DNA of 64,000 nt from an uncultured Bacilli bacterium (GTDB lineage Bacteria; Bacillota_I; Bacilli_A; RFN20; CAG-826), in contig CALVHN010000001.1 of NCBI GenBank assembly GCA_944327845.1, forward strand, positions 9,149 through 73,148, written 5' to 3'. A model generated the notes under the pieces. The model saw only the letters and a program-made list of their open reading frames with translations, was not told the origin of the DNA and did not search any database. The translations under genes were made by a program, and so were the position numbers. This document shows, piece by piece, positions 41,023 to 64,000 of the stretch. The first letter of the stretch is position 1; the number at the start of each line of letters is the position of its first letter.

Positions 41023-41037
41023 GTTAAAGGAGAGAGT

Positions 41038-43392
41038 ATGGGACATTTAATTACTTTAGTAAATGCATCAAAGATTGAAGCAATCTCACTTGCAATATCA
41101 ATCACAGTCATCGTTCTTTTATTTATTACACTTGCAGTATCTTTATATTTATATTATCGATACTATAAAAAATGTATCGATAATAAGATTGAAGATTCAT
41201 ACATTAAAAATGAAATAAAAGGTGAAAATAAAAAGTTTTTTAAACGTTTTGAAAGCTTAAAAAATAATCAAGAATTAACTAAAGATCAAAAGATTGATAA
41301 ATATAATGAAGAATTATTAGTTGAATATGTTGATAATAAAATTGGTAATAATAATTTTATTAAAGTAATTGCTAATTTATTCTTAATTATTTTCTATGTT
41401 TGCTTAATTGCTATTATGGGTTTTGCTATTTATACTCGAAGCCAAGGAGATACTATTCCTCTTGGAAATAGCTATTATGTTGTTATCCAAACTGGATCAA
41501 TGGAAGAAAAAAATAGTGCAAATACTTACTTAGAAGAAAATAATTTAAATGATCAAATCGAGACATTTTCTTTAATTGGATTAGATTATGTTGATAGTCC
41601 AGATGAATTAGAACAATATGATATTGTTGCTTATTATGATGATGATAACAATTTAATTGTTCATAGAATTATTAATATTACTTATGATGAAAATAATAAT
41701 CCTATCTATACTTTAAGAGGTGATAGCAATACTTTCTCAAATAGTGATGAAAGAAGTTTAACTTTTGATGATATCGAAGGAAAATATAATGGATTTCAAA
41801 ATTTTGGCTTAGGTTTAACTATCAATTATATGAAATCTAATATTGGCATAATTGCTATATCTTTAGGCTTAATTTTAATTATGATCTATGACTACTTTGA
41901 TATCTTACTAGGTAAAAGAATTAAATTAAGAAAAGAAGAAATTTATCCTTTAATTGATGAAGAAAATATTAATACTTTAAAAGGTTTGACTTATGTTCCT
42001 GTTATTGAAGAAGAAGTTAAAGAAGAAACGATAGAAGAAATAAATGAAACACCTTTAGAAGAAGTTATTGAAAATAAAGAGGAAGTTTTAACTACAAATA
42101 GCGAAGAAAATAAAGATGAAATCTTAGTTAATCAAGAAATAAATAATGAAAATAATCTTCAAGATATAAATATTGAAACACAAGAAGAAAATAAACCTGA
42201 TATAGATGTAGTTGTTGTTCCTATTGTTCAAAAAACTAAAAAAGCTCGTAAAAAGATGATTCCATTTAACGATAAACTTTTAAGAGCAAGTGATGACTTA
42301 AAATTAAAATATGAATACTTAAGAGATTATATTTTAAGCTTTGGATTAAAACATCGTATTTCAAGACAATTTGATAATTATTCATTACATAGAGTGAGAT
42401 ATTTCTGTTTTGTTTTAAGAGGAAAAGCTTTATTTATTCACTTTAAACTTGATATTAATGATTATGCAGATTCAACAATTCCAGTTAAATTAGATGATAA
42501 AGTTAAATATCAGGATGTTCCAGTAATCTTTAAAGTTAAATCTAATCTTTCATTAAAACGTGCTAAATCTTTAATTGATGATGTTATGAGCAATGAAGGA
42601 TTTGAACAAAAATATGAATTTATCTCTCATTTTAATTTAAATGATATCGATGAAACTGAAGAAATTGAAGATGATTTTGAAGATGAATTTGATGATAATG
42701 ATTACGAAATTGAAGAAGTAGAAACTACTAATGAAAATAATGAAGAAGAAAAAGTAGTTGAAACTGATAATTTAAATGATAATGAAGCTTCTAATGAATC
42801 TATTGAAGATGATAATTCTAATGTCGAAATTAATAAAGAAGAATCTGATGAAGAAGAATTAAAAGACAATAATGAAGACACTGAAGATGAAAAAGATGTT
42901 GAAGTAGAAGAAGACTCTAACGACATCGAAGAAGAACAAAATATTTCTTTTGATTCACAAAATGAAGAAAATAATGATCAAGTTATTAAGGTTAAAAGAA
43001 AGAGAAATCCTGTTGTTAAACTTTCAACTAAACTTAATTTAATTCCTCAAGATTTAAAAGAAAAATATGATGAAATTATAAAATATGCTTCTAATTATGG
43101 ATTAAAAGGTAGAATTTCTAATACTCAATATACTTTTAGACTTCATAGAGTTACATATATTGTTGTTCAAATTAGAAATAATGCTTTAAGATTACATTTT
43201 AAACTTGAAGAATCTGATTTTGATGAAAATAATAAGATTCCATTTAAAAATGATTCAAAGAAAGCCAAGTTTATTGATACTCCAATCTTCTTTAAAGTTA
43301 AATCTAAATTATCTTTAAAAAGATGTAAAATGATGATTGATGTTTTAGCTAAAAAGTATAATTTTGAAAAGAAAGATGAATCTATAAATTAG
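41038..43392 (+). CDS. membrane protein carrying a SipW-type (S26B) signal-peptidase domain, an acidic linker and two tandem ~125-aa C-terminal domains
   Basis: Peptidase boxes 'VVIQTGSMEE' (Ser box), 'YDIVAYY...LIVHRII' (His box) and 'YTLRGDSN' (compare SipW 'SGSMEP', 'THRV', 'KGDNN'), flanked by transmembrane segments. Residues ~403-525 and ~645-775 are clearly paralogous ('...LHRVRYFCFVLRGKALFIHFKLD...FKVKSNLSLKRAKSL' against '...LHRVTYIVVQIRNNALRLHFKLE...FKVKSKLSLKRCKMM'). Confidence 0.5.
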   Translation: MGHLITLVNASKIEAISLAISITVIVLLFITLAVSLYLYYRYYKKCIDNKIEDSYIKNEIKGENKKFFKRFESLKNNQELTKDQKIDKYNEELLVEYVDNKIGNNNFIKVIANLFLIIFYVCLIAIMGFAIYTRSQGDTIPLGNSYYVVIQTGSMEEKNSANTYLEENNLNDQIETFSLIGLDYVDSPDELEQYDIVAYYDDDNNLIVHRIINITYDENNNPIYTLRGDSNTFSNSDERSLTFDDIEGKYNGFQNFGLGLTINYMKSNIGIIAISLGLILIMIYDYFDILLGKRIKLRKEEIYPLIDEENINTLKGLTYVPVIEEEVKEETIEEINETPLEEVIENKEEVLTTNSEENKDEILVNQEINNENNLQDINIETQEENKPDIDVVVVPIVQKTKKARKKMIPFNDKLLRASDDLKLKYEYLRDYILSFGLKHRISRQFDNYSLHRVRYFCFVLRGKALFIHFKLDINDYADSTIPVKLDDKVKYQDVPVIFKVKSNLSLKRAKSLIDDVMSNEGFEQKYEFISHFNLNDIDETEEIEDDFEDEFDDNDYEIEEVETTNENNEEEKVVETDNLNDNEASNESIEDDNSNVEINKEESDEEELKDNNEDTEDEKDVEVEEDSNDIEEEQNISFDSQNEENNDQVIKVKRKRNPVVKLSTKLNLIPQDLKEKYDEIIKYASNYGLKGRISNTQYTFRLHRVTYIVVQIRNNALRLHFKLEESDFDENNKIPFKNDSKKAKFIDTPIFFKVKSKLSLKRCKMMIDVLAKKYNFEKKDESIN

Positions 43393-44918: not shown

Positions 44919-44994
44919 GGGTGTTTAGCTCAGCTGGGAGAGCATCTGTTTGACGTACAGAAGGTCACAGGTTCGAGCCCTGTAGCACCCACCA
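44919..44994 (+). tRNA. tRNA-Val (GAC)
   Basis: Cloverleaf: acceptor GGGTGTT/AGCACCC, D-arm GCTCAGCTGGGAGAGC, anticodon stem TCTGT/ACAGA with loop TTGACGT, T-arm GGTTCGAGCC, and an encoded CCA. Confidence 0.8.
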
Positions 44995-45046: not shown

Positions 45047-45119
45047 GCACCAATAGTTCAGTGGTAGAACACTAGCTTCCCAAGCTAGTTATGCGGGTTC
45101 GATTCCCGTTTGGTGCTCC
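45047..45119 (+). tRNA. tRNA-Gly (anticodon loop TTCCCAA, read as CCC)
   Basis: Acceptor GCACCAA/TTGGTGC, D-arm TAGTTCAGTGGTAGAAC typical of tRNA-Gly, anticodon stem CTAGC/GCTAG, and T-arm GGGTTCGATTCCC. Confidence 0.7.
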
Positions 45120-45166: not shown

Positions 45167-45859
45167 TTATTTGCTATTTTCATCCTTTGAAATAAGTTCT
45201 TCTAAAAGAAGACCAACATTAGAACCAAGGTTATTTTTTAACATTTTTAAATCTTCACAGAAAAATTTCTCGTTTTTTATTGCTGTCTGGATTTTGTCTT
45301 TAAACTTTTCAAAATTTAAATTTGATTTTGTACAATTAAAAAAATCAGATAATTTAATTTCTAAAAATCTTTTTCCTCCTTTTCTAGTTTTTCGATTCTC
45401 TAACATCGCTTTAGGATCTAATGTAAAAATCTTATCATCATGCATTAATAAAAATAGTTCAAATGTTGGGTTAGAAAGACAAATATTATAGTTCTCATTT
45501 TCACATTTATTAAAGAATTCATCTAATTGTTCTTCTTTAAAGTTTTGTGGATCTCTATCTATTATAAAGAAAACTTTATCAATCTTTGGATCATAAGTAA
45601 TTTTATTGTCCTTAATTGATTTTTTAAAATTTTTAAGTTTAAGTAATGGATGGCTTTGTCCATTTTCATCAATCTCATTTTTTATTAACCTTATATCAAT
45701 TAAATAATTTATGTTTAAATAATCAGTATTTGCTTTTATACCTTGAAAATATTTAATTTCAGTAACATCTCCTTCAGTAACAATGAAGTATTTAGACTTT
45801 GGTTCGATATTACCTCTTTTTCTTGTTAAATTAAGATTATTTTCATTTAATTCTCTCAT
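45167..45859 (-). CDS. RloB-like protein (AbiLii-like partner of the AAA ATPase)
   Basis: N-terminal 'KYFIVTEGDVTEIKYF' and C-terminal 'FFIIDRDPQ...CLSNPTFELFLLMH' match the RloB-family pattern (IVCEGEKTE...SNPcFElWlLLH). Translationally coupled to the upstream ATPase. Confidence 0.6.
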   Translation of the reverse strand: MRELNENNLNLTRKRGNIEPKSKYFIVTEGDVTEIKYFQGIKANTDYLNINYLIDIRLIKNEIDENGQSHPLLKLKNFKKSIKDNKITYDPKIDKVFFIIDRDPQNFKEEQLDEFFNKCENENYNICLSNPTFELFLLMHDDKIFTLDPKAMLENRKTRKGGKRFLEIKLSDFFNCTKSNLNFEKFKDKIQTAIKNEKFFCEDLKMLKNNLGSNVGLLLEELISKDENSK

Positions 45860-47277
45860 TAATAATTATCTCCAATTGAAGACGTGACTTCAAAAGTTGG
45901 TATGCCTCCATATCGACCTTCTAAATACGCTTTATCAATTTTTTTATCAAATCTTTCGTTATATTTTTCTAATGAATAAAGGGTAGTTGGACCATTTTTG
46001 TCTCTATCTGTAAACCATATTTCATCTCTTCTTAATAAATTGAAATCTAACAATCTCGATTCATGAGTAGTAACGACTAATTGGCTATTTTCTGTTGCTT
46101 CAAGAAAATATTTAACAAATTCATAAGTTAATTCTGGATGAAAACATCTATCTAATTCATCGATAAAGTATACTTTTTCTCCTTTTGTATTTAAAAGTAC
46201 ACCAATTAAATCAAATAATCTTTGTGTTCCATCTGATTCTTCGATAAATAAATAATCACCATCATTGTTTTTATGGTTTAAAACTACTTTCTTAACATTA
46301 TATTGATTATTGTCTCGATTAATAAAAAACATTTCTCGGTTGATGCGTAAAGAAACTAATGGTTTTTCAGTAATGTTATTTTTAACTCGGTTAATATAAG
46401 CGGTATCTAAATTATTTAACATATTTTTTAAAAATTCTGGTGGAAGATTTAAACTTAATAATTCATCTAAAGAACTATCAACTAAATTACATTGACTTAT
46501 ACCTGTTCCAAATTTTGAAATTAATTCATTAATTTTATTAAGACTTTCTTCAGATAAAAATAGTGGAGAAGAGTCTAAACTTAATTGTGGGAATATTATA
46601 ACTAATGAGTTTAAAAACCAATTATAAATATCTTTAAAAATAGTTACATTGTTGTCGTTATATTCTCGATATAAGGTATCTTTATTTTTATTCATAATTG
46701 TTAAAAACAAAATAGTATCTTGATCTTTCATATCTGAATAATAAACATCTAACCTTTTTAAGATTTCTTTGTTGTTATTGAAATAATTGTTATCTAGATT
46801 AATGTTTTCGTGTAATTTACGATTAAAAATTAATTCTTCTTTATTTGATTTTTTATTAAGTTTATATAGCCATTCAGCTTTAATGCTATTTTTGGATAAC
46901 AAAATGTCAAAGCCGTAGGCATATAAATTATTATTAATTTCAATTTCAAAATCAAAAGAGCTCATTTTATCTTTATTTTCGGTATTTATTCGACAATATA
47001 AATTAGAACAATTTCCTCTAATACCACTTAATATTATATTTTTAGCAAAGGAAACGGCTTTTATTAAATTTGATTTTCCTGAAGAATTAGCTCCATAAAT
47101 TGCAGAAAATTTTAATAGTTTTAAATCATTATTTTTTTTAATGATGTGATTCTCTTTTTTTTTTGTACTTCCTGCAATCATCGAAAGTTCTTGTTCTTCT
47201 TGAAAAGATAAATAGTTTGATACTTTGAAATTGATTAACATTTTTTCTCCTTTAAAATGTGAAATTTTCACATTCAT
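45859..47277 (-). CDS. AAA-family (ABC-like/RloA-AbiLi-like) ATPase
   Basis: Walker A 'SAIYGANSSGKSNLIKA', a Q-loop region, Walker B 'VYFIDELDRCFHPE', and a D-loop/H-motif 'VVTTHESRLLD'. Its stop overlaps the start of the RloB-like gene. Confidence 0.7.
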   Translation of the reverse strand: MNVKISHFKGEKMLINFKVSNYLSFQEEQELSMIAGSTKKKENHIIKKNNDLKLLKFSAIYGANSSGKSNLIKAVSFAKNIILSGIRGNCSNLYCRINTENKDKMSSFDFEIEINNNLYAYGFDILLSKNSIKAEWLYKLNKKSNKEELIFNRKLHENINLDNNYFNNNKEILKRLDVYYSDMKDQDTILFLTIMNKNKDTLYREYNDNNVTIFKDIYNWFLNSLVIIFPQLSLDSSPLFLSEESLNKINELISKFGTGISQCNLVDSSLDELLSLNLPPEFLKNMLNNLDTAYINRVKNNITEKPLVSLRINREMFFINRDNNQYNVKKVVLNHKNNDGDYLFIEESDGTQRLFDLIGVLLNTKGEKVYFIDELDRCFHPELTYEFVKYFLEATENSQLVVTTHESRLLDFNLLRRDEIWFTDRDKNGPTTLYSLEKYNERFDKKIDKAYLEGRYGGIPTFEVTSSIGDNY

Positions 47278-47857: not shown

Positions 47858-48695
47858 TTAATTAATTTCCTTTATTTCATCAATAATAGATTTATTTTTC
47901 TTTTTATATATAACATAAAAAGATTGAGTTGCTTCTTTATCTAAAATTGGTAAACAAATACGATTTTTATTTTCTCTCATATATAAAGTAATATTAGTGG
48001 CAAAAGCTGGAATAGAAGAAGCATCAATTATATCTTGAAGTTCATTTTTATTTTGATAGAAAAATCGAGAATTAGGTAATTTTTCTTTAATAATATTTTT
48101 CCAAATTCCAATATCATTTAATACTAAAAAAGATTGTCCATCTAAATCATTAAAAGTTATTCCATCTTTTTTAAAAGAAAGAAAATGATTTAATGGTAAA
48201 GAAGCAAATAATTTTTCTTCCATTATTTTTTCACAAATTATTTTATCATTTATAAAAGGATGATTAATAAAAGCAATATCTTTTGTACCATTTATAATGT
48301 CATTTATGCATTCATTTTCTTCTTCTATACATAAATTAAAGTGGTGTTTAGCTTTATTAAAAATAAAACAATTTGGAAATTTAAAGGTTGGACCGGGAGC
48401 AGTTAATGCAACTTGATAGGTAAGTTCTTTAAGTTTTAATTCTTTTGCTTTTTCTTTTAATCTTTCTTCTAAAGAAATGATGTTTTTAACATATTCAGCA
48501 ATTATTTTTCCATTTTCATTAATAATAATTTTATTAGGAAAACGATCAAATAATTTAAGATCTAATTCATCTTCTAACTTTTGAATTGCTTTAGTAATAG
48601 AAGGTTGAGAAATAGAAAGCTTTTCACTAGCTTTAAGAATAGTACCTTCTTCATAAACTGCTAAAAAAATATTCTAATAAATATGATTCAATCAT
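47858..48695 (-). pseudogene. LysR-family transcriptional regulator, frameshifted in an A7/T7 run 11 codons from the start
   Basis: Minus-strand ATG at 48695 gives 'MIESYLLEYF' and then shifts frame inside the T7 run (plus A7 at 48663-48669). The +1 frame continues as the LysR helix-turn-helix 'LAVYEEGTILKASEKLSISQPSITKAIQKLEDELDLKLFDR' with no stops through to 47858. The ORF track reports only the distal 121 aa. Confidence 0.55.
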
Positions 48696-50758: not shown

Positions 50759-50769
50759 GAAAGAGATAA

Positions 50770-51700
50770 ATTGAAGTTGTTTCTTTTTAGAAATTCAAAT
50801 ATTACTTCAATTGTTTACCTAATAGTATAAGAGAAATTGGAAATAATGCTTTTTATAATTGTTTTAATTTAAAAAAGTATTAATGCGTTTTCGGGGTATA
50901 ATACTTTAGAAAATATTAATATCCCTGCTAAAGTTAACTTAATTTTAGAAAATTCCTTTAATAATTGTTCTTTAATTAATTTTGATGTTGATAATGATAA
51001 TAGGAATTATTATTCATTAAATGGTTATCTTATTAAAAGAAGTAGTAACACTTTAATTAGAACTAGACAAATGGTGTTATTCCTGAATGAGTTTTAATTA
51101 TTGGGTATAAAGCTTTTATAAATTCAACATTACCTTCAATATCTTTTCTAGTCTAGTTAATGAAATTGCTTCTAATGCCTTTTATTTTAATGATAATTTA
51201 AAAGGTATAAATGTTGATTAAAATAATGAATTAATATAATGTTCCTTTAGGAATTGAAGGATATATTGAATTATTAAATATAAATATAATTTCAAGTTTT
51301 TCTATTTGAGGATGTAGATTAACTTTTATTATCAAGGTATTTTAGAAGAATGGAATTTAATTAAAAAACATTCTACATAGAATATAAATATAAATATTGA
51401 TGTTGAATATTTATATTAAATAAAGGGAGAAGATATAATGAAATTAAATATATTTATCAATTAGATAAAATGATGAATATTATGGAAGTGAAACTTTAAT
51501 AAATGGTTATAATAAGATAGTTAATATATATCTTAATAAAGGTTTAAATATTAAAACAGTAAATCAATTAGTAACATTAGATGTTAAATCTCATTCATAT
51601 TTTTAGATAATGGAGTTACTTATGAACATGGTGTAACTAATCTGTATGCTCACGATGAAAAGATAATGGGATAGTTGTTTGATTGATAAAAATTTACAAA
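50770..51700 (+). pseudogene. decayed BspA-type leucine-rich-repeat surface-protein pseudogene
   Basis: Frame fragments 'LPNSIREIGNNAFYNCFNLKK', 'INIPAKVNLILENSFNNCSLINFDV', and 'YYSLNGYLIKRSSNTLIRT' are typical BspA-like LRR units. Frequent stops in all frames. Confidence 0.4.
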
Positions 51701-51826
51701 AATAGATTATTTTTACAAGGTTTTTAATGAAAATATCGATTCTGTATTTTTATAAATTATTATTTATTTTTTAAATATTTTTTGGTTTATAAATGGTATA
51801 ATATTATAAATTGTTAATTAATTAAT

Positions 51827-51891
51827 AAAAAAGTCCTGAAGCCAGGACATATGTGATGACATAAGTTTTATTTGAACTTGTTATGTTATCT
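51827..51891 (-). ncRNA. tracrRNA of the type II-A system (predicted)
   Basis: Minus-strand RNA 'AGAUAACAUAACAAGUUCAAAUAAAACUUAUGUCAUCACAUAUGUCCUGGCUUCAGGACUUUUUU'. Its 5' part pairs with the CRISPR repeat as a 12-bp upper stem (GUUAUGUUAUCU), a bulge, and a 5-bp lower stem (UUUGA), the same architecture as the S. pyogenes repeat:anti-repeat duplex. A terminal hairpin GTCCTG-AAGC-CAGGAC plus U6 lies at 51827-51848. -35 TTGACT is at 51921-51926 and -10 TATTAT at 51898-51903, with a 17-nt spacer, both on the minus strand. Confidence 0.6.
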
Positions 51892-51931
51892 ATAAAAATA
51901 ATAATTCTTAAAAATAAAGGAGTCAAGTTTT

Positions 51932-54900
51932 ATGGCAGAAAAGTTGTTATTAGGTTTAGATATTGGAACTAATAGTGTTGGTTGGTGTTTAACAGATGAG
52001 AATTCGAAAATAATAAAAAAGAATGGAAAATATTTATGGGGAATTAGATTATTTGATGAATCTAAATCATGTAAAGATAGAAGAATTTATCGATCAACAA
52101 GAAGGAGATGTGCTAGAAGAAAACAAAGGTTAGCATTACTCCAAGATTTATTTGAAAAACCGATGTCTAAAATTGACCCATATTTTTTTAGAAGGCTTAA
52201 GGTTTCTCAAATTAAAAACGAAGATAGAAATGATGAATTTAATTTGAGTGAATATAAAAATAAATATTTATTCTCTGACCATCAAGAAGAAATAGAATTT
52301 TATAACAAATATCCAACAATCTATCATCTAAGATTAGCTTTAATTAATTCTAACGAAAAAATCGATTTAAAATATTTATATTTAGTCTGCGCACATTATA
52401 TTAAATATCGTGGGCATTTTTTATTCGAAGGACAAGATTTTAATGTTGAAAACGGTGCAAGCATTGCACAAAGTTTAAATTGTTTATTAAATGAAGATAA
52501 TGAAAATAATGTTTTGTTTGAAACTAAGGATCTCGATGAAATATATGATATTTATTCAAATAAAAAATTAGATAAAAAAGATAAAGTTAATAAAATTAGA
52601 GATTATTTATTTAATAAAGTTTATGAAGTAAATAATGATGAAAATGAAAAAATATATTTAGGATATATTGCTCAATTATTTTTAGATTCTAAAGTTGATG
52701 CTAAAAAAATTTATAAAGATAAGGACTTAGATTTAGATAATACAACAATAAGTTATGATTCTGATGATTTTGATTCGATTATTGATGAATTAATAAACGT
52801 CTCTTCTGATTATGATATAGATTCATCTTTTTTTGAAAATATAAAGGAATTAAAGAAAGTATATGATTACTTAAAGTTAAAAAATATTTTAGGAGATTCG
52901 ATTTATATATCAGAAGCAATTGTTAAAAGATTTGATAAACATAAGGAAGATTTAATAAAGTTAAAGAATTTTGTAAAAACAAATTTTGATAGAGAAACAT
53001 ATAAGAAGGTATTTATAAATGTTGATGATAAAGTTTGTAATTACCCTCATTTTGTCGGTTCTTCTTTAGTTAAAGGGAAAAAGAAAACAATTTCAAAATG
53101 TAAAAAAGATGATTTTTATAAATTTTTAGAAACTACATTAAATATTAAAAGAAATGAAATAGTTAAAGAAGAAAATGAATTAAGTGATAAAGAATATATT
53201 GAAAAAAGAATGTATGATGGAACTTTTTTAGAATTATTACGTTCAAGTCAAAATAGATTTATACCTTATCAATTAAATAAAAAAGAATTAGAAATTATTT
53301 TAAATAATCAATCTAAATATTATGAATTTTTAAATGAAAGTGATGATTATGGAACAGTTAAAGATAAAATAATAAGTTTATTAACATTTAAAATCCCATA
53401 TTATGTTGGTCCATTAAACGAATCTAGTAAATTTGCTTGGATTAAGAAAAAACAAAATCAAAAAATTACTCCTTGGAATTTTAATGATATTGTTGATAAA
53501 GATGCATCTGAAAATGAGTTTATTAAACGAATGGCAAATCATTGTTCTTATTTGTTCAAAGAAGAAACCTTGCCTAAAGAATCACTTCTTTATCAAGAAT
53601 ATGAACTTTTATCTACATTAAATAAACTTTATATAAATAATCAGCCAATAACTAATGAGATAAAAACTTTCTTAATTGATGTATATAAAAATAGAGGTAC
53701 TAAAATTAGTTTAAAAGATTTAAAAAGAATAATTAGTGATAGATTTGGTGATGGAAATGAAATAATTTTAACGACATCCAATGATAAAGAATTAGATGAA
53801 AATTATTTATCCGATTCTTTAAGTTCTTTTAAAAAGTTTTCTAATATTTTTGGAAAAAATTATGTTGAAAGTAATGTTGAAAAAATTGATCAAATAATTT
53901 CAATATGTACAATTATATCTGATAAAAATAGATTAAAAGATTATTTAATAAAAGAATTTAAATTGAATGAAGAGGATGCAATTAAAGTATCTAAATTAAA
54001 GTTTTCTAAATTTGGTAGACTTTCAAATAAACTTCTCTGTAAGTTAAAAGGAATCGATTCAAAAACTGGTGAAGTTATATGTGATAAGAGTATTATCCAA
54101 TTAATGAGAGAAACTAATCAAAACCTTATTGAAATTATAAATAATAAAAAATATGGCTTTCCTGCAGCAATTAATTTAGAAAATAGCGAATTTTTAAAAG
54201 AAAAATATGGAAATAAAGAATTATCTGATGAACAAAAGATTTTAGATTTCATTGATAAACTTTATATTTCTCCAAAATTAAAAAGACCATTAATTCAAGC
54301 AATGAAGATTATTAATGAACTTGAAAATATAATGGGTTCAAAAGAAAAAGGTAAAAGGTCAATCGATGAATATTATATTGAAGCAACTAGAGGACCAGAT
54401 ATAAAAGCAAAAGGTAAAGCAACAAAAAGTAGAAGGCAAAAGATGCTCGAAATTTATAAAGATGCAAAAGATTTTGTCGATGAATATGATAGCAGCAAAG
54501 CAATTTTATCTAATTTAAATGGAGTTGAGGATTCCAGATTAAATAGTAAAAAAGTTTTCTTGTATTTTAGACAATTAGGAAAGGATCTTTATACTGGTAA
54601 TCCAATTGATTTTGATAGATTAGAAACTGATTACGATATTGATCATGTATTTCCTCAATCTAAAATTAAAGATGATAGTTTTGATAATTTAGTTTTAACT
54701 TTAAAGGAAAATAATTCAGATAAAGGTGATATATATCCAATTCCTTATGATAGTTTTCGTGAAAAGCATAATTGGTCTAGTAAAATAAGAAATAGATTTT
54801 TTGAAAAACTGCATAAAAATAAATTTATAAGTGAAACTTTATATCATAGATTAACAAGACTAACTCCATTAACTGAAAATGAATTATTTAATTTTGTTAG

Positions 54901-56260
54901 TTCTCAAATAACAACTACATCTCAAGCAGTTAAAGCAATTAAAGATACAATATTGCAGTTTAAAACTAATAACGAAAATAAAGAGCCTGCTGTAATTTTA
55001 TCGAAGGCTCAAGTTATATCAGATTTTAGAAAGAATCATGATTTATTAAAATGTAGAAAAGCTAATGATTTTCATCATGCTCATGATGCTTATTTAAATT
55101 TGATTGTTGGAAGAGCCGTCAATGAGTATTTTACTAAATATATTGCTAGAAAATCTTATTTAAAGAATTTTGATATTTCTAAAAAATTAACAACAAATAT
55201 TAATAAATTTTTAGATAGTAAAGATTCTAAAGGCAGTGATTTAAATAGACCTAATATATATGATGGAGATTATCTAGTATGGGATTATAAAGATGAGAAA
55301 ACTTTGAATGAAATAAAATATAATATTTATCATAATTTTAATATTTTACATACAGTTAGAACTTATGAAAAAGCTGGTATATTTTCTCAAGTAACAATAT
55401 CTCCAAGCAATCCAAAAGGTTATGCATTATCAATTAAAAATTCAATAGGAAACCCATTATCTAATTCAATTAAATATGGCGGATATTCACAATTATCTTT
55501 TGCATATATGATGCTAATCAAAAACTTAGATAAAAATGATAAATATTTATTAATTATGGTTCCGAGTATTTATAAGGATAAATTGGAAACAAAGGAATTT
55601 AACGATTATGTTTTTGAAGAATATAATGTTAAAAATTTTGATATTATTTTACCCAAACTAAAAATAAACACACTGATTAAAGAAAACGAATCTGAGTTTA
55701 GGATAACAGGCAAAGCAGATGTAAGACTTGCATTAAAAAATAATAAATATGTGTTTTATAACGAGGATTATATTAAAACAATCAAAAATCTTTTTAAAAT
55801 AACAAATAAAATTTCTGAAATTGTTATCAATAAAAAATATAAAAATATTGATGCTTATATTAACGATAATTACAAACAAACATCTTTCGGAATTTATTTT
55901 GATGAAGAATTTATAAAATTAAACGGCGAAACTCTTATTACTAAAAGACAAATTGTAGATTTAAGTAATTTTTTGAAAAAAATTATAAAAAATAAGATAT
56001 ACGATTATGCTAGAAGTAGTTATGATACTATGGATAATTATTTGTCTTATGATAATGATTTATCTTTAATCAAAAATATGCTTATTTTAAAAGAGTGTAT
56101 TAATCGTTTACGAGATTCTTCTTTGACATTTAATCTCAAAGCGTTTGGAAAAGGAGTTATTTCAAGAGAAAGAATGCAATCGAATATTTCAAAGAAAATT
56201 TCAATAATTTATGAATCAACTACAGGATATTATCGAAAAGTTGTCTGGAGCAATGAGTAA
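51932..56260 (+). CDS. cas9: Cas9 (type II-A), 1442 aa
   Basis: RuvC-I 'GLDIGTNSVGW', arginine-rich bridge helix 'RRRCARRKQR', HNH 'DIDHVFPQSKIKDDSFDNLVLTLKENNSDKGD', and RuvC-III 'HHAHDAYL'. Followed by cas1-cas2-csn2 and the array. Confidence 0.95.
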   Translation: MAEKLLLGLDIGTNSVGWCLTDENSKIIKKNGKYLWGIRLFDESKSCKDRRIYRSTRRRCARRKQRLALLQDLFEKPMSKIDPYFFRRLKVSQIKNEDRNDEFNLSEYKNKYLFSDHQEEIEFYNKYPTIYHLRLALINSNEKIDLKYLYLVCAHYIKYRGHFLFEGQDFNVENGASIAQSLNCLLNEDNENNVLFETKDLDEIYDIYSNKKLDKKDKVNKIRDYLFNKVYEVNNDENEKIYLGYIAQLFLDSKVDAKKIYKDKDLDLDNTTISYDSDDFDSIIDELINVSSDYDIDSSFFENIKELKKVYDYLKLKNILGDSIYISEAIVKRFDKHKEDLIKLKNFVKTNFDRETYKKVFINVDDKVCNYPHFVGSSLVKGKKKTISKCKKDDFYKFLETTLNIKRNEIVKEENELSDKEYIEKRMYDGTFLELLRSSQNRFIPYQLNKKELEIILNNQSKYYEFLNESDDYGTVKDKIISLLTFKIPYYVGPLNESSKFAWIKKKQNQKITPWNFNDIVDKDASENEFIKRMANHCSYLFKEETLPKESLLYQEYELLSTLNKLYINNQPITNEIKTFLIDVYKNRGTKISLKDLKRIISDRFGDGNEIILTTSNDKELDENYLSDSLSSFKKFSNIFGKNYVESNVEKIDQIISICTIISDKNRLKDYLIKEFKLNEEDAIKVSKLKFSKFGRLSNKLLCKLKGIDSKTGEVICDKSIIQLMRETNQNLIEIINNKKYGFPAAINLENSEFLKEKYGNKELSDEQKILDFIDKLYISPKLKRPLIQAMKIINELENIMGSKEKGKRSIDEYYIEATRGPDIKAKGKATKSRRQKMLEIYKDAKDFVDEYDSSKAILSNLNGVEDSRLNSKKVFLYFRQLGKDLYTGNPIDFDRLETDYDIDHVFPQSKIKDDSFDNLVLTLKENNSDKGDIYPIPYDSFREKHNWSSKIRNRFFEKLHKNKFISETLYHRLTRLTPLTENELFNFVSSQITTTSQAVKAIKDTILQFKTNNENKEPAVILSKAQVISDFRKNHDLLKCRKANDFHHAHDAYLNLIVGRAVNEYFTKYIARKSYLKNFDISKKLTTNINKFLDSKDSKGSDLNRPNIYDGDYLVWDYKDEKTLNEIKYNIYHNFNILHTVRTYEKAGIFSQVTISPSNPKGYALSIKNSIGNPLSNSIKYGGYSQLSFAYMMLIKNLDKNDKYLLIMVPSIYKDKLETKEFNDYVFEEYNVKNFDIILPKLKINTLIKENESEFRITGKADVRLALKNNKYVFYNEDYIKTIKNLFKITNKISEIVINKKYKNIDAYINDNYKQTSFGIYFDEEFIKLNGETLITKRQIVDLSNFLKKIIKNKIYDYARSSYDTMDNYLSYDNDLSLIKNMLILKECINRLRDSSLTFNLKAFGKGVISRERMQSNISKKISIIYESTTGYYRKVVWSNE

Positions 56261-57132
56261 TGGGTTTTAGAACAGTAGTGGTTAAAAATAGATCTAAATT
56301 AGAAGTTTCATTAAACTATTTAGTTTGCAGAACTGTTGATGGAGAAAAAAGAATTTTACTCGATGAAATTGCTACTGTTTTAATTGAATCAACACAAGTT
56401 GCAGTTACTAGTTCTTTACTTTCAGCTTTGGCTGAAAAAAATATTAATTTAATTATTTGTGATTCTAAACATAATCCAGTTTCACAAATGTTAAGTTTAT
56501 ACGGAAGTTATGATGCTTATCATAAACTATTAAAACAATTATCTTTTAGCGAGGAAAGAAAAGGTAATATTTGGGCTGCAATTATTAATAGAAAAATATT
56601 AAATCAATCTCGTGTATTAGAGATTTCTAATAAAGAAGATAGTTATAAAAAACTACTTGAATATGCTTCAGAAATTGAACGAGGTGATATAACAAATAGA
56701 GAAGGACATGCAGCCAAAGTTTACTTTAATAGTTTATTTGGAAATGAATTTTCGAGAAATCAAGAAAGAAAAGAAAATAAATATCTAGATTACGGTTATT
56801 CAATAATTTTAAGTTCTGTTTCTAGAGCAATAAAGTGTATAGGTTATTATACTGAATTAGGTGTTCATCATATTGGTAAAACGAATCCATTTAATTTATC
56901 TTGCGATTTTGTTGAACCTTTAAGACCTTTGATTGATTATCAAGTTGTTTCAAATAAAGTTAATGATGAAAATTATAAAAATACATTTGTCGATATATTA
57001 AGTTTAAATGTTGACTGTGATAATAAAAATATGCTTTTGGATAATGCTATAAAAACGTATGTTCAGTCATTATTTAATGCTTTAGATAATAATGATATAA
57101 GCAAAATAAAGTGGATTAATTATGAGCTCTAG
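56260..57132 (+). CDS. cas1: Cas1 (type II)
   Basis: 'GFRTVVVKNRSKLEVSLNYLV' N-terminus typical of type-II Cas1. 290 aa. Overlaps the cas9 stop. Confidence 0.9.
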   Translation: MGFRTVVVKNRSKLEVSLNYLVCRTVDGEKRILLDEIATVLIESTQVAVTSSLLSALAEKNINLIICDSKHNPVSQMLSLYGSYDAYHKLLKQLSFSEERKGNIWAAIINRKILNQSRVLEISNKEDSYKKLLEYASEIERGDITNREGHAAKVYFNSLFGNEFSRNQERKENKYLDYGYSIILSSVSRAIKCIGYYTELGVHHIGKTNPFNLSCDFVEPLRPLIDYQVVSNKVNDENYKNTFVDILSLNVDCDNKNMLLDNAIKTYVQSLFNALDNNDISKIKWINYEL

Positions 57133-57442
57133 ATTTATGAGATTAGTATTATTTTTTGATTTACCTGTTATTAAAACTTCTCAAAGAAAAGCTTATACAA
57201 AGTTTGTTAAAGATATAAAGAAAATTGGATTTTATATGTTACAAGAATCTGTATATATTAAGATGTGTTTAGATTCACAAGCTTCAAATTCAACTATAAA
57301 CAAAGTGAAGGACTTAGCGCCAAGCGAAGGTAGTATAATGATTTTAATGGTTACTGAAAAAGAATTTTCAGAAATGAAAGTCGTATGTGGAGAAAGTATA
57401 TCAGATGTTATTACTACTTCAGATAGGGTTGTAGTATTATGA
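57122..57442 (+). CDS. cas2: Cas2
   Basis: 106 aa, 'MRLVLFFDLPVIKTSQRKAYTKFVKDIKKIGFYMLQESVY'. Overlaps cas1. Confidence 0.9.
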   Translation: MSSRFMRLVLFFDLPVIKTSQRKAYTKFVKDIKKIGFYMLQESVYIKMCLDSQASNSTINKVKDLAPSEGSIMILMVTEKEFSEMKVVCGESISDVITTSDRVVVL

Positions 57443-58095
57443 TTTTAAAGTTTAGAGGAATTAATTATTCTTTTGAATATTGTGGTGGAGATATTTCTTT
57501 TTTAGTCATTGAAAGTAGAGAATTTTACTGGAAGCTTTTAAATTCTTTAAATGAATTAAATGAAGATAATATATTTTTAATAGATGATAAAAAGATTGAT
57601 TTAAAAAATGCGATTTTATTTTTTGATAGATTATTCGATTTGGATCCAAATAGTAAAAAAATACTATCCTTAACTTATCAAGATATAAATAAAATGTATT
57701 TAAATGATTCAATCAAAGTTAAAATAAGTGTAGCTAATGAAATACTTTTAGGAATTTTAGATAAGTTAGCTCTTGATGTTGATTTTAAGGCTAGATATGA
57801 AAGTGATTTAACATTGAATGATGTTTTAAATTTATATAAATTTAGATATGAAATTGAATCTAAATCTTTTATTGAAATGTTTCTTCAATATATAAAATCG
57901 TTGATGGTTGTTATGAAATATAAGTATGTTGTGACATTAAATTTATTAGACTTTATTGATAAAAATAATCTAGATTTGCTAAGTAATGAGTTAAAAATAC
58001 TAGGTTTAGACTTAATTGATATTTCAAGACACTCTTATAAATTAGAAAAATATAAAGAAATTCTTATTGATAATGATTTATGCGAAATATCGTAG
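57439..58095 (+). CDS. csn2: Csn2 (type II-A signature protein, short form)
   Basis: 218 aa, placed between cas2 and the array and overlapping cas2 by 4 nt. Confidence 0.8.
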   Translation: MILKFRGINYSFEYCGGDISFLVIESREFYWKLLNSLNELNEDNIFLIDDKKIDLKNAILFFDRLFDLDPNSKKILSLTYQDINKMYLNDSIKVKISVANEILLGILDKLALDVDFKARYESDLTLNDVLNLYKFRYEIESKSFIEMFLQYIKSLMVVMKYKYVVTLNLLDFIDKNNLDLLSNELKILGLDLIDISRHSYKLEKYKEILIDNDLCEIS

Positions 58096-58098
58096 TAA

Positions 58099-58225
58099 AA
58101 TTATATTGATAAAATAAATTTTATCAAAAAATAAAGACGAATTATGTCTTTATTAAAGTTATTGTTTCAAGCCTAAAACAGGTAATTAATTCTAAAATCT
58201 CTGTTATTTGTTTATATAATTTGAG
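58099..58225 (+). promoter_or_regulatory. CRISPR leader
   Basis: AT-rich 127-bp region between the csn2 stop and the first repeat. Confidence 0.5.
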
Positions 58226-59571
58226 GTTTGAGAGTTATGTTATCTACGGTCGGTCTTGAACAACTAGAAGAAGATGTTTTAATGACTTATAGTTTGAGAG
58301 TTATGTTATCTACGGTCGGTCTTGAACTCAAGTTACGGATACACCGTTCCTTCAGTGTTTGAGAGTTATGTTATCTACGGTCGGTCTTGAACTTGAGATT
58401 GAGGTGCTTTTGCAAAATGATTGTTTGAGAGTTATGTTATCTACGGTCGGTCTTGAACATTTATTCTTTTCCGTTCTAGTAATTTTTTGTTTGAGAGTTA
58501 TGTTATCTACGGTCGGTCTTGAACATTATTTGGAAGTTCTGTTGCATCAATATAGTTTGAGAGTTATGTTATCTACGGTCGGTCTTGAACTACTTTAATA
58601 TGTAAAATGTTGTTCATCCGTTTGAGAGTTATGTTATCTACGGTCGGTCTTGAACATAACATCTTTACAAGGATCTTGCACACAGTTTGAGAGTTATGTT
58701 ATCTACGGTCGGTCTTGAACATATCTTGTTCATAGACTTGTCCATCTTCAGTTTGAGAGTTATGTTATCTACGGTCGGTCTTGAACTGTCTTTGATTTTT
58801 AAATCTGTCATAATTGTTTGAGAGTTATGTTATCTACGGTCGGTCTTGAACTAAAACTGGCATCATTTCCTTGATTATATTGTTTGAGAGTTATGTTATC
58901 TACGGTCGGTCTTGAACACTAATTCCTTTGCATTTGGTCCTATTGTGTTTGAGAGTTATGTTATCTACGGTCGGTCTTGAACCCTAGAAAGTATAATAAT
59001 TTTATGGATTAGTTTGAGAGTTATGTTATCTACGGTCGGTCTTGAACTTTTGTTCATTCTTTAGTCCTCCTATTGATGTTTGAGAGTTATGTTATCTACG
59101 GTCGGTCTTGAACTTAAACTGGCGTTTTACCTTGATTATATAGTTTGAGAGTTATGTTATCTACGGTCGGTCTTGAACAGTCTGTTCTTCTAAAATACTT
59201 GCCTGTGTGTTTGAGAGTTATGTTATCTACGGTCGGTCTTGAACAAGAACGATTTGAGGTGCTCACGGTATCTGTTTGAGAGTTATGTTATCTACGGTCG
59301 GTCTTGAACGCATCGTTTGTATCTTGGCTTGTGCTTTTGTTTGAGAGTTATGTTATCTACGGTCGGTCTTGAACATATTTCTACAAGCACATTTACTACA
59401 ATTGGTTTGAGAGTTATGTTATCTACGGTCGGTCTTGAACTTACTTTCTTTGATATAATAATTCTAGGCCGTTTGAGAGTTATGTTATCTACGGTCGGTC
59501 TTGAACCATTATCTAGATTAATCCATTCGCTACCGGTTTGAGAGTTATGTTATCTACGGTCGGTCTTGAAC
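58226..59571 (+). CRISPR. CRISPR array of 21 x 36-bp repeats (GTTTGAGAGTTATGTTATCTACGGTCGGTCTTGAAC) with 20 spacers of 29-30 bp
   Basis: Repeats counted directly at 58226, 58292, 58357, 58423, 58489, 58555, 58620, 58685, 58751, 58816, 58882, 58947, 59012, 59078, 59143, 59209, 59274, 59339, 59405, 59471, and 59536. All repeats are identical, including the last. Confidence 0.97.
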
Positions 59572-59602
59572 TCTTATATATTGTTAATCACGGATATAAA
59601 AT

Positions 59603-61190
59603 GTACATAAGGGGGATGCGGATATTTTTTTAGACTAATATTGATTATAATTTAACATAAATTCTTTTGGGGATAAATATCCTAATCGTCTCTTAATTCG
59701 TTTATTTTTAAACCAGATTAAATATTTTTCTAATTCTGTAATAAAATCATCACATGTTGTATATTTCCAATCATTTGGATAAAAGAACTCATTTTTAATT
59801 GTTCCAAAGAATCCTTCACACATTGAATTGTCTGGAGAACATCCCTTTCTAGACATAGATCTTTTATAACCATATTGTTCCATTAGCTTTATCCAAGAAT
59901 CTATTCTATAATGGAAACCTCTATCGCTATGAATTAGTATCCCGCAATCACCAATAATTTCATGAGCTTCCTTTAACATTTTATTAGTTAATTCAGAATT
60001 AGGAGATTTACCAATTCTCCAAGTAATAGGAGAACCATCGAAGCAATCAATAAGAGGGGACAAATAAACTTTACCATCTTTTAATGCGAATTCAGTTATA
60101 TCTGTAAGAGCTTGTTTATATGGTTTATTCACAATAAATTTTCTATTAACTAAGTTTTCAACTTGTGGACTTATTTCACCTTTATAAGAAGAGTACTTGA
60201 GTTTTGATTTTGGCATATAAACAAATAATTTTTCTTCTTTCATTAACCTAATAATCACTTTTTCAGAAATAACAACTCCATACGATTTTGACAACTCTTG
60301 TTTTACTCTTCTATATCCATAACATTCATAATTATTAAAAAATATTTCTTTAATGATTTTCCTTATAATTAAGTATTTATCAAAGTTTAGTCTTTTTATT
60401 TCATAAAAATATGTTGAACGTTTTAAATGAATTATTTTAAGCAACTCATTGATTTTATATTCTTCTTTTAAGGCGTTGATTATTTGAGTTTTTTCTTTAT
60501 TGCTTAATAGAGAATAATCAACGCCTATTTCTTTTTTTAATATTTCGTTTGCTTTTTTTAGAACTTTATTTTCAAGTTCGAGTTTTAAATGTTCTTTTCG
60601 AAGAGCTATTATTTCTCTTTCAAGTTCTTGTTTTGATTTATCTTTCTTTTTCATAATTGGTTCACCAGTTAGTTCTTTTTGCCACTCATATAAAGTAACT
60701 CTAGTAACATTATACTTATTAGCAACAGTAATTGCTGACGAATCTCTTAAAACTAAATCAACAATTGCTTTTTTCATATTTTCATCGTCCAATATCGTTG
60801 GCTTTTTATGAATTTTATGTTTTCTGGTCCATCTTTTATCTTTTTTTACCCATGATTTTAATGATGAAGGGGATGGATAACCAAATTTTCGGCATGCTTT
60901 AGTTATGTTTTCACCATGACTAAAGTAGTATTCTATTACAGACTCTTGTTCCTCTTTACTCCATTTTGATGATTTATTCCTCTTTCTTGAAATTAAGGGT
61001 TCTCCCTTTTTTCTTTTATCTCTCCAAGATCTTAATGTATAGCGATTAATCCCTAATGCTTTTGCGGTTTTAGATAATTGTCCATCATAGGTATCTAACA
61101 AATTTAATGCTTTTTCAATTTCTTCTATTTTGTGCATACTTGTCCTTTCTATTTAGTCCAAGTTTTTGTCTGCACTCCCTTTTGGTTAAA
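59603..61190 (-). mobile_element. IS3-family insertion sequence (about 1.6 kb) with imperfect terminal inverted repeats
   Basis: A single 500-aa transposase gene. Imperfect ~35-bp inverted termini: left '...AAGGGGGATGCGGATATTTTTTTAGACTAATAT' against right reverse complement '...AAGGGAGTGCAGACAAAAACTTGGACTAAATA'. Boundaries are approximate. Confidence 0.55.
59635..61137 (-). CDS. IS3-family transposase, fused OrfAB form
   Basis: Three N-terminal helix-turn-helix units, a leucine zipper ('LELENKVLKKANEILKKE'), then an rve DDE integrase core ('HSDRGFHY', '...CSPDNSMCEGFFGTIKNEFFY'). Confidence 0.75.
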   Translation of the reverse strand: MHKIEEIEKALNLLDTYDGQLSKTAKALGINRYTLRSWRDKRKKGEPLISRKRNKSSKWSKEEQESVIEYYFSHGENITKACRKFGYPSPSSLKSWVKKDKRWTRKHKIHKKPTILDDENMKKAIVDLVLRDSSAITVANKYNVTRVTLYEWQKELTGEPIMKKKDKSKQELEREIIALRKEHLKLELENKVLKKANEILKKEIGVDYSLLSNKEKTQIINALKEEYKINELLKIIHLKRSTYFYEIKRLNFDKYLIIRKIIKEIFFNNYECYGYRRVKQELSKSYGVVISEKVIIRLMKEEKLFVYMPKSKLKYSSYKGEISPQVENLVNRKFIVNKPYKQALTDITEFALKDGKVYLSPLIDCFDGSPITWRIGKSPNSELTNKMLKEAHEIIGDCGILIHSDRGFHYRIDSWIKLMEQYGYKRSMSRKGCSPDNSMCEGFFGTIKNEFFYPNDWKYTTCDDFITELEKYLIWFKNKRIKRRLGYLSPKEFMLNYNQY

Positions 61191-61370: not shown

Positions 61371-61880
61371 GTGAATAATATCGACATATATAATGAAATT
61401 TCATTGCAATTGGAATTAGGAATATTTTTGAGAAGTCAAATTAAAGATTATAAAATCCAATTTGAAAGAAATATCTCTTTCTTTGGCATCACAGGCACTA
61501 CAAAACATGAAATTGACATTGTGATTTTTAATAAGGATAAAAAAGAGAAATATGCTATTGAACTGAAATTTCCTAAAAATGGCCAATATCCTGAAGAAAT
61601 GTATTCTTTCATTGAAGATATTGTTTTTATGGAAGAACTTAAACGCGAAGGTTTTACTAAGACATATACTTTAGTGGTTGTGTCTGATCCGTTGTTTTAT
61701 GAAGGCGGAAGGGTAAAAACAGGAATTTATGCATATTTCAGAGATAGTAAATCAATTACTGGGGAAATATCTAAACCTACTGGTAAGGATAAAGGCATTT
61801 CTCTTTTAAAAGTTAAAAACTCATATACTATCAATTGGAAAGATTGCTATTTAGGCAAGTATTACTTTCTTGAAATTTAA
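61371..61880 (+). CDS. hypothetical protein, possibly PD-(D/E)XK-like
   Basis: 169 aa from a GTG start. 'HEIDIVIFNK...YAIELKFPK' resembles a D...(D/E)xK nuclease core. Weak. Confidence 0.3.
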   Translation: MNNIDIYNEISLQLELGIFLRSQIKDYKIQFERNISFFGITGTTKHEIDIVIFNKDKKEKYAIELKFPKNGQYPEEMYSFIEDIVFMEELKREGFTKTYTLVVVSDPLFYEGGRVKTGIYAYFRDSKSITGEISKPTGKDKGISLLKVKNSYTINWKDCYLGKYYFLEI

Positions 61881-62409: not shown

Positions 62410-62781
62410 TTGGATAAGCAAATAGAAGCATTATCTAATGAACTCAATGATATGTATAAAGAGTTTGAACTACTCGTTAAGATGAACGCGACCACGCAGC
62501 AAGATCAAACGATTTGGCGAAAAAAGTATGCAGAACTTGAGAATATTTATAAAAACAAAGAAGCAGAACTTAATTCACTTATTACTAAAAAGAACAAAAT
62601 CAAACTAAAAATTAATAAGTTTAATATCTTCATAAAAACACTTAAAAAAGGTGAACTCATCACTGATTTTGATGAAGAGATATTCAATTTCAATCTAGAG
62701 AAAGCAATAGTTCATAAAGATAAATCAATAACATTTAAGTTCTATTCTGGTTATGAAGTAACAATTAAGTCTGAAGGGTAA
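62410..62781 (+). CDS. hypothetical coiled-coil protein (TTG start); possibly the remnant of a longer gene
   Basis: 123 aa. The same frame upstream is open ('FLLFLIYAPIKMFLKAYNEMIRSKDLLITNLI') but interrupted by TAA at 62377. Confidence 0.3.
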   Translation: MDKQIEALSNELNDMYKEFELLVKMNATTQQDQTIWRKKYAELENIYKNKEAELNSLITKKNKIKLKINKFNIFIKTLKKGELITDFDEEIFNFNLEKAIVHKDKSITFKFYSGYEVTIKSEG

Positions 62782-62930
62782 AGCAAAACCATCATATTTT
62801 GTCAAGACTTAATTTCTAAAATTATTGAAATTTAATTTTTTCGTATGTAGAATAAAGTTGCTAGTTAATAATACCTTGCCTCTCTCGAAAGGCTCGGTGG
62901 GGGTAATATTGAATCATATTATATCCTTCT

Positions 62931-62963
62931 AGGATCTAGGTGAAAGAAACTAGATCCGTTTTT
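62931..62963 (+). terminator. rho-independent terminator
   Basis: Stem GGATCTAG / CTAGATCC around a 10-nt loop, followed by GTTTTTT. Confidence 0.5.
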
Positions 62964-62979
62964 TGTTAGGGGGATAAAA

Positions 62980-64000
62980 ATGATTAGAAAGATTGTGTAT
63001 CTATTTGCTTCCGTTTTTTTAACATTTGGTTTTGCATTGACCAGTTGTGATTCTTTAGGTGAAAATAATTCAACTTCTAACAGTGAATCGACTAGTGAAA
63101 CCAATGATGGCAATTCTGCAACTACTCATGAACATACATATAGTAGTTCATATGAATATGATGATACATATCACTGGCATCCATCAACATGTGGCCATAA
63201 TGTTGTAAGTGATAAAGAAAAACATACGTTTAAAGAAGAAGTGACTGACCCAACCTATGAAAATGGCGGTTACACAACTTATACTTGTTCAACATGTGGA
63301 TATTCATACACTGATGATGAAGTAGACGCCTTACCGATTACCATCACTTGGAAAAATTATGATGGGACAGTATTAGAAGTGGATAATAATGTTCCTTATG
63401 GCACGATGCCTAGTTATGATGGTGAAACACCTACTAAAGAAAGTGATAGCAATTATGATTACATTTTTGCTGGTTGGACTCCTAGTGTTGTTATAGCAAC
63501 ACAACCTACAACATACATTGCTACATTTTCTAATCAAGAAATTACTTATACTGTTGATTTTGATTTAAATGGTGGTACTTCAAATTCATATAAAGGTCCA
63601 ATTGAAGTAAAAACACTTAGTAAAGATATGTTTTTCTTTGATTGCGTTAAAGAAGATTGGTCTTTTAGAGGTTGGGAATATAAAGGAGAAAAAATCTTTG
63701 ATGAAAATGGTAATCAACTAAAAAATGTTACTTTAGTTGACAATATGGTTTTTAAAGCTATTTATTCTCAAACTGTAAAATTATCAATTGTTAGTAATAT
63801 TCCTAGAGCAGGGACTATTACTGGTGAAGGAGAGTATCCATATAATACTTATGTCGATGTATCAGTTAAGCCTAATCAAGGTTATGTATTTATAGGTTGG
63901 TATTATCAAAATACTTTGCTTTCAAATACTGAAGATTATAAATATATGATGTGGGATCAAGATGTTACATTAGAAGCAAGATTCCAATTAGATTCATTTA
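62980..64000 (+). CDS. surface lipoprotein with Listeria-Bacteroides (Flg_new-type) repeat units; truncated at the window end
   Basis: The ATG at 62980 follows a GGGGGA ribosome-binding site. Lipobox 'ALTSC'. Repeated modules such as 'YTVDFDLNGGTSNSYKGP...FRGWEYKGEKIFDENGN' and 'IFAGWTPS' are typical of this beta-repeat. The ORF is open to the end of the window. Confidence 0.55.
   Translation, partial: MIRKIVYLFASVFLTFGFALTSCDSLGENNSTSNSESTSETNDGNSATTHEHTYSSSYEYDDTYHWHPSTCGHNVVSDKEKHTFKEEVTDPTYENGGYTTYTCSTCGYSYTDDEVDALPITITWKNYDGTVLEVDNNVPYGTMPSYDGETPTKESDSNYDYIFAGWTPSVVIATQPTTYIATFSNQEITYTVDFDLNGGTSNSYKGPIEVKTLSKDMFFFDCVKEDWSFRGWEYKGEKIFDENGNQLKNVTLVDNMVFKAIYSQTVKLSIVSNIPRAGTITGEGEYPYNTYVDVSVKPNQGYVFIGWYYQNTLLSNTEDYKYMMWDQDVTLEARFQLDSF

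Follow-up and report, generated by a model that had tools for sequence, protein, structure and literature searches.

Does a short stretch of an uncultured bacterial chromosome, lying between a decayed leucine-rich repeat (LRR) gene and an insertion sequence (IS), encode a complete adaptive immune system, and if so, of which subtype and with how distinct a nuclease? To answer this, we analysed a window of 64,000 nucleotides (nt) of contig CALVHN010000001.1 from an uncultured Bacilli bacterium. Within it, a first-pass annotation had claimed a complete and intact type II-A CRISPR-Cas system at positions 51827-59571. All the components were found there, and four lines of evidence agree: typing with hidden Markov models (HMMs), the catalytic motifs, covariation of the anti-repeat, and the motif at the end of the leader. 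The locus is very probably a functional-looking, canonical type II-A CRISPR-Cas9 adaptive immunity system on the chromosome of a low-GC Bacillota-type bacterium. Gene content and integrity, domains and catalytic motifs, repeat:anti-repeat complementarity with its covariation, the leader motif and the spacer differences at the leader end were observed directly.

Gene content and subtype

The elements of the locus follow one another in the order trans-activating CRISPR RNA (tracrRNA, minus strand), cas9, cas1, cas2, csn2, leader and array (Table 1). The cas open reading frames (ORFs) overlap or abut: position 56260 is the shared boundary of cas9 and cas1, and both cas1/cas2 and cas2/csn2 overlap. 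Apart from two short ORFs nested in cas9 and csn2, the cas operon contains no further ORF of at least 60 amino acids (aa), and two short ORFs further downstream fall within the array.

All four Cas proteins scored above curated HMM cut-offs. Cas9 reached 707 bits against TIGR01865 (cut-off 100) and 686 bits against the PADLOC Cas9 model, and its ATG is preceded by the ribosome-binding site AAGGAG. Pfam assigned bridge helix, REC, HNH_4, Cas9_RuvC and Cas9_PI domains to the protein, and the catalytic residues are present: D10, E817 (in YYIEATRG), H905 (in DIDH), N919/N928 and H1049/D1052 (in HHAHD). The reading frame was checked for frameshifts, which the annotation had named as a possible fault, and none was found. 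Identical Cas9 is encoded on 13 independent public contigs and identical Csn2 on 19, and cas9 translated from L001, L002, L003 and L006 showed zero amino-acid differences from the window.

Csn2 matched TIGR01866 at 78.7 bits (cut-off 35), with protein positions 2-217 aligned to 1-222 of the 222 profile positions. It also scored 28.0 bits against PF09711, for which the threshold is 23.7, and 106.8 bits against PADLOC Csn2. No cas4 was found at the locus in the ORF listing or with NCBIfam or PADLOC. The locus was assigned to subtype II-A because Csn2 passes its cut-off and cas4 is absent. The same two observations set it apart from II-B and II-C, and the HMM typing that had been proposed as a check on a possible II-C assignment came out for II-A. 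The gene order cas9-cas1-cas2-csn2-leader-array, together with the ATTTGAG leader end, is a further hallmark of II-A. The architecture is ordinary in every respect, and the divergence of Cas9 is the sole unusual trait of the locus. As a textbook II-A system, the locus changes no concept, and its value is incremental.

Table 1. Features of the CRISPR-Cas locus and its surroundings, in window coordinates
Feature	Position	Strand	Description
tracrRNA gene	about 51891-51827	-	~65 nt; immediately upstream of cas9 and divergent from it
tracrRNA promoter-like site	51926-51898	-	TTGACT, 17 nt, TATTAT; 10/12 matches
cas9	51932-56260	+	1442 aa; one uninterrupted ORF
cas1	56260-57132	+	290 aa, type II class; TIGR03639 cas1_NMENI 289.7 bits (cut-off 120); PADLOC Cas1_II 330 bits
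cas2	57122-57442	+	106 aa; TIGR01573 71.1 bits (cut-off 24.5); PADLOC Cas2_II 120.7 bits
csn2	57439-58095	+	218 aa, short form; II-A signature gene
Leader	58096-58225	+	130 nt; last 7 nt (58219-58225) ATTTGAG, followed by GTTT of the first repeat
CRISPR array	58226-59571	+	21 identical 36-nt repeats, 20 unique spacers
Trailer	59572-59609	+	38 nt; separates the final repeat from the inverted repeat of the IS3-family element
AbiL-type abortive-infection pair	45167-47277	-	AbiLi-like AAA_21 ATPase 264 bits; AbiLii/RloB-like 65 bits (PADLOC)
tRNA-Val(GAC) and tRNA-Gly(CCC) genes	44919-44994 and 45047-45119	+	Adjoin the AbiL pair
Decayed BspA-type LRR gene	about 50760-51250		LRR_5 motifs over three reading frames, many stops
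IS3-family element	about 59610-61180	-	Single 500-aa transposase ORF joining helix-turn-helix and rve parts

The guide RNA

The tracrRNA that had been claimed at 51827 was found as a tracrRNA-like gene on the minus strand, where this coordinate is its 3' end, in the T-run; the 5' end was placed from the position of the promoter-like site. From 5' to 3' the RNA reads AGAUAACAUAAC-AAGU-UCAAAU-AAAACUUAUGUCAUCACAUAU-GUCCUGGCUUCAGGAC-UUUUUU. Behind the anti-repeat (AGAUAACAUAAC-AAGU-UCAAAU) come a short nexus-like hairpin and then a terminator hairpin (GUCCUGGCUUCAGGAC) with its U-run; this last hairpin and the U-run form the only terminator-like site within 51400-59700. In the canonical geometry, the 5' 22 nt are complementary to positions 1-20 of the repeat: the lower stem has 6 bp and the upper stem 12 bp, with the GA/AAGU bulge between them. 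With one 3' hairpin beyond the small nexus-like stem, the tracrRNA is compact at ~65 nt.

We then compared this region with four related loci, L015-L018, whose Cas9 proteins are 37-39% identical to that of the window. Each of the four has a repeat-like sequence at the corresponding position upstream of cas9, and its reverse complement is therefore an anti-repeat for that locus's own repeat. When the repeat:anti-repeat cores of the five loci were aligned, standard pairs occupied 75 of 75 cells, and 5 of the 15 pairs had changed on both sides. In controls in which the partner was slid by 1-3 columns, 27-37% of cells were paired and there were no compensatory changes. These findings bear out the claimed tracrRNA and show that its pairing co-varies in the four relatives; they support it more strongly than the features of the window sequence alone.

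Fused to the repeat as a single-guide RNA (sgRNA), the tracrRNA folded as expected (-29.7 kcal/mol, z = -6.7). The scaffold derived from repeat and tracrRNA is N20-GUUUGAGAGUUAUGUUAUCU-GAAA-AGAUAACAUAACAAGUUCAAAUAAAACUUAUGUCAUCACAUAUGUCCUGGCUUCAGGACUUUUUU. Because repeat, tracrRNA and leader are known in full, an sgRNA can be designed straight from the sequence.

A conserved leader and a variable array

ATTTGAG, with which the leader closes, is the leader-end motif of the Group 1 type II-A loci. The ATTTGAG/GTTT motif occurs in 87 of 167 II-A loci and is experimentally required for spacer integration in Streptococcus thermophilus CRISPR1 (PMC5382924, PMC4330368). A TTTGAG leader end was also found in all four relatives, and the whole leader is identical in L001-L003.

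The array had been described as 21 identical repeats with 29-30 bp spacers and a leader adjacent to csn2, and it was counted exactly so. The repeat, GTTTGAGAGTTATGTTATCTACGGTCGGTCTTGAAC, is present in 21 perfect copies including the terminal one, which is not degenerate; ten spacers are 30 nt long and ten are 29 nt. Its 5' 20 nt gave 21 matches, compared with 0 in 100 shuffles, and the repeat was not found in GTDB species representatives or JGI metagenomes. Truncation of the array by the IS was also considered. It is unsupported, as the 38-nt trailer does not run on into a repeat; the trailer region is identical in the first 45 nt shown for L001, L005 and L006.

Comparison between samples showed that the arrays differ at the leader end. 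The order of the spacers in the window agrees with that in the independent contigs L001, L005, L006, L008, L009 and L010. The arrays of L001/L005, L006, L002, L008 and L009, contigs with the identical Csn2, start at window spacer 5, while those of the window and L010 start with spacers 1-5 and carry four extra spacers at the csn2-proximal (leader) end. Four additional leader-end spacers in one lineage are the signature of polarised acquisition, and the observed differences fit recent polarised spacer uptake. Spacers 8-9 are missing from L001/L005, L006, L008 and L009, the arrays that reach far enough, and this internal two-spacer difference is most simply explained as a deletion through repeat recombination. 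The variants between samples document, on a small scale, the natural gain of spacers at the leader end.

Two details of individual spacers were also observed. Spacer 10 (58852-58881) and spacer 14 (59114-59142) have the blocks AAACTGGC and CCTTGATTATAT in common, offset by one base, and may have been taken up independently from two diverged invaders, at the same site in each. At the end of contig L010 (ERZ24773426), the 18 nt after spacer 5 read TACTTTTATTTGTAGAAT, with 3 mismatches to window spacer 6 (TACTTTAATATGTAAAAT); these reflect either an error at the end of a low-coverage (3.2x) contig or a variant spacer.

A divergent Cas9

In a search of ~5.8 billion proteins, the nearest non-self Cas9 was 39% identical to that of the window. 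The protein had been placed at the large end for II-A, which is a weaker point: 1442 aa is typical of its clade and not exceptional, the top Cas9 matches being 1340-1495 aa long. The closest solved structure is Faecalibaculum rodentium Cas9 (FrCas9, 9JWK), which matched at 533 bits over query residues 6-1273, and S. pyogenes Cas9 (SpCas9) matched residues 3-1085 at 364 bits. The C-terminal 343 aa alone matched no PDB chain at E <= 0.01 with phmmer. When the region that interacts with the protospacer-adjacent motif (PAM), the PI region (aa 1160-1442), was compared by phmmer with 1.84 billion cluster representatives, 92 proteins including the window Cas9 itself were found at E <= 1e-3 and 12 at E <= 1e-10. 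The top-scoring non-self match was 34% identical, and none exceeded about 35%.

The PI region has no detectable similarity in the PDB, and homology therefore gives no access to the PAM. On the same ground, transferring the PAM of FrCas9, 5'-NRTA-3' (PMC12926199), to the window protein was rejected.

A second route to the PAM had been proposed, namely BLAST of the spacers against phage and plasmid databases. With the 20 spacers concatenated, blastn gave best E values of 0.8 against INPHARED phages and 0.7 against PLSDB plasmids. Exact scans of IMG/VR with 20-26-nt 3' parts of spacers 1, 2, 7, 8, 16, 17 and 20 returned nothing. IMG/VR was also scanned with a gapped pattern covering spacers 10 and 14, and the only IMG/VR hit, L004, was taken as chance: it matched just the 20 bases that the pattern specifies, and its GC content is 43%. 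Spacer 5 had 0 matches in JGI metagenomes, and no credible self-target with up to 7 mismatches was found in the window or in L001-L003. These searches yielded no protospacer, so no PAM was inferred.

The suggestion of a distinct Cas9 orthologue with its own PAM is plausible: the nearest identity is 39% over the whole protein and about 34% in the PI domain. Judged from the protein sequence, the PAM specificity of this Cas9 may well be distinct from that of characterised orthologues. The broader proposal, to which we give slightly less than an even chance, is that a divergent PI domain conferring such a PAM and an unusually compact tracrRNA with a single 3' hairpin would make up a new orthogonal Cas9/sgRNA pair. 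The locus contributes a Cas9 orthologue that branches deeply and comes from a low-GC, gut-type bacterium, uncultured and poorly sampled. Its main practical interest lies in this orthologue, with a guide-RNA scaffold that is completely specified and a PAM that may be new.

Genomic setting and origin

The window has ~25% GC and encodes PolC, AddA, TopA and TrmFO, which fits a low-GC Bacillota-type host. No close PolC was found among GTDB species representatives. The TopA of the conspecific metagenome-assembled genome GCA_949284795.1 is 99% identical, and the next one after the conspecifics is 69% identical. The genetic code is the standard bacterial one, as TGA terminates four long ORFs. A code in which TGA is read as Trp was considered as an explanation of the LRR pseudogene and rejected on this evidence, with long ORFs intact under table 11.

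The LRR pseudogene and the IS that were said to flank the locus were both found. A peptide stitched from the three frames of the LRR remnants matched PF13306 at 59.3 bits, and no gene is called at this site in other contigs. On the other side, the IS3-family element has imperfect terminal inverted repeats (AGGGGGATGCGGA... and AGGGAGTGCAGA...). Within 1.6 kb, about 25 substitutions separate it from the copy in L001 (17285-18857), along with two 1-nt indels, though Cas9 is 100% identical. To the right of the element, the window and L001 sequences are unrelated, a sign either that the IS has mediated a rearrangement or that the assembly was joined at a multi-copy IS. Further upstream, the AbiL pair lies ~4.6 kb from the CRISPR-Cas locus, and a flavodoxin/aldo-keto reductase cluster separates it from the LRR remnants. 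The region of AbiL, tRNA genes and CRISPR looks like a small defence island, and the locus sits in a defence-island-like, rearrangement-prone region.

The position between the LRR pseudogene and the IS had been read as a sign of horizontal acquisition. We considered whether the locus lies on a recently acquired accessory island, an origin that is compatible with a II-A assignment. The upstream LRR pseudogene and the IS3-family element immediately downstream would be in keeping with it, as would the AbiL pair and two tRNA genes 4.6-7 kb upstream, the different sequence right of the IS in L001, and the unrelated gene neighbourhoods in which the loci of the Cas9 relatives lie. However, the cas operon shows no compositional anomaly, with a GC content of 23.2% where the remainder of the window has 25.2%. 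Moreover, the locus occupies the same site, with the flavodoxin/aldo-keto reductase flank upstream, in all conspecific contigs that reach the flanks, among those recovered through Cas9 or Csn2. No donor can be named either, the nearest Cas9 being 39% identical. On this evidence, we consider recent acquisition possible but rather unlikely.

Several neighbouring ORFs were also noted. A 169-aa ORF at 61371-61880 (plus strand), just beyond the IS3 element, and a 121-aa ORF at 47858-48223 (minus strand), ~3.7 kb upstream of cas9, have no Pfam, NCBIfam or PADLOC match. Adjacent ORFs of 792 and 784 aa at 38644-43392 (plus strand) have no NCBIfam assignment save a SipW-like signal-peptidase segment in the second. 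An ORF at 62701-64000 (plus strand) runs off the window end; read from its translation, with a signal and a Cys at the N terminus and beta-rich modules repeated after them, its product is a probable lipoprotein or surface protein.

Proposed function and competing explanations

From homology to the systems of S. pyogenes and S. thermophilus, we infer expression, processing, cleavage and PAM recognition as follows. The array would be transcribed from the leader into a precursor CRISPR RNA (pre-crRNA), and the tracrRNA, made divergently just upstream of cas9, would pair with the first 20 nt of every repeat. The resulting duplex would be processed by host RNase III together with Cas9. Loaded with crRNA:tracrRNA, Cas9 would bind invader DNA beside a PAM and cut both strands, using the HNH and RuvC sites. 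New spacers would be inserted at the leader-proximal repeat by Cas1-Cas2, Csn2 and Cas9, with the ATTTGAG leader end positioning the insertion.

Several points weigh against a functional type II-A system. No credible protospacer was found for any spacer in the INPHARED, PLSDB, IMG/VR, JGI and window/related-locus searches. Promoter-like sites occur at chance frequency in this AT-rich region (65 found, 64 expected), and for the putative tracrRNA promoter it is the position alone that is suggestive. The match to Rfam RF02348 scored 22.7 bits (E = 0.15) against a gathering score of 70; it is the best in the region and has the strand and position of the tracrRNA. By its predicted pairing and fold, the RNA has the functional anatomy of a tracrRNA, yet by score it is no member of the curated RF02348 family. 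The anti-repeats of the relatives were chosen by eye, which inflates the percentage of paired cells and not the compensatory changes. Finally, the sequence is metagenome-derived and the array order depends on assembly, although several independent contigs agree on that order.

The absence of targets for all 20 spacers in the searches made, together with a pseudogene and an IS in the neighbourhood, could indicate an inactive relic, complete in sequence, that has lost expression or function. We regard this as very unlikely: every ORF is intact, the catalytic residues are kept, all 21 repeats are identical, and Cas9 is 100% conserved between samples. In addition, the four spacers by which the variants differ at the leader end imply that spacers were acquired after the variants had diverged. 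That the locus belongs to II-B, II-C or a variant subtype of type II, and that its fourth gene is something other than csn2, is scarcely credible. In favour of this reading, a plain phmmer search of PDB sequences with the 218-aa protein detected no Csn2 structure, and its precomputed Pfam hits are blank in the contig tables. Against it, TIGR01866 matches the protein end to end above the cut-off, PF09711 exceeds its gathering score, twelve PADLOC Csn2 models match, and the locus combines the lack of cas4 with II-A gene order and leader end. A functional-looking canonical II-A system remains the reading that we prefer.

Relation to characterised systems

The II-A system of S. pyogenes has the same gene set as the window locus. 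It also shares the operon order, 36-nt repeats with ~30-nt spacers, and the catalytic motifs. Its repeat:anti-repeat geometry is that of the window, with a lower stem, a GA/AAGU bulge and an upper stem, then UAA and the nexus. The S. pyogenes tracrRNA has more 3' hairpins, whereas that of the window is shorter, with just one terminator hairpin after a small nexus-like one. The leader ends are of different classes, ...ACGAG in S. pyogenes and ATTTGAG in the window, and the PI region of SpCas9 is unrelated to that of the window Cas9 at the sequence level.

For the S. thermophilus nuclease, comparison was made by size only, and St1Cas9, at ~1121 aa, is much smaller than the window Cas9. S. thermophilus CRISPR1 and Group 1 II-A loci have the same ATTTGAG/GTTT junction as the window and a short-form Csn2 of about 218-230 aa, as in the window (Van Orden et al. 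2017, PMC5382924).

Among solved structures, the II-A protein FrCas9 (PDB 9JWK/9JWN; PMC12926199) scored best, with chain positions 16-1225 aligned. Both proteins are large, 1372 aa for FrCas9 and 1442 aa for the window Cas9, and have the layout RuvC, bridge helix, REC, HNH and PI, the window domains being those assigned by Pfam. They differ in that the C-terminal 343 aa of the window protein have no significant phmmer match in FrCas9 or in another PDB chain.

Related systems occur in an uncultured-bacterium Cas9 clade (represented by P0002-P0007; loci L015-L018). Their repeat 3' halves and genomic neighbourhoods differ from those of the window, and identities to the window proteins are 37-39% for Cas9, 52-59% for Cas1, 52-58% for Cas2 and 32-34% for Csn2. 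The operon is nevertheless the same: upstream of cas9 the tracrRNA again lies on the minus strand, the leader ends in TTTGAG, and the repeats start with GTTTGAGAG or GTTTATGAG.

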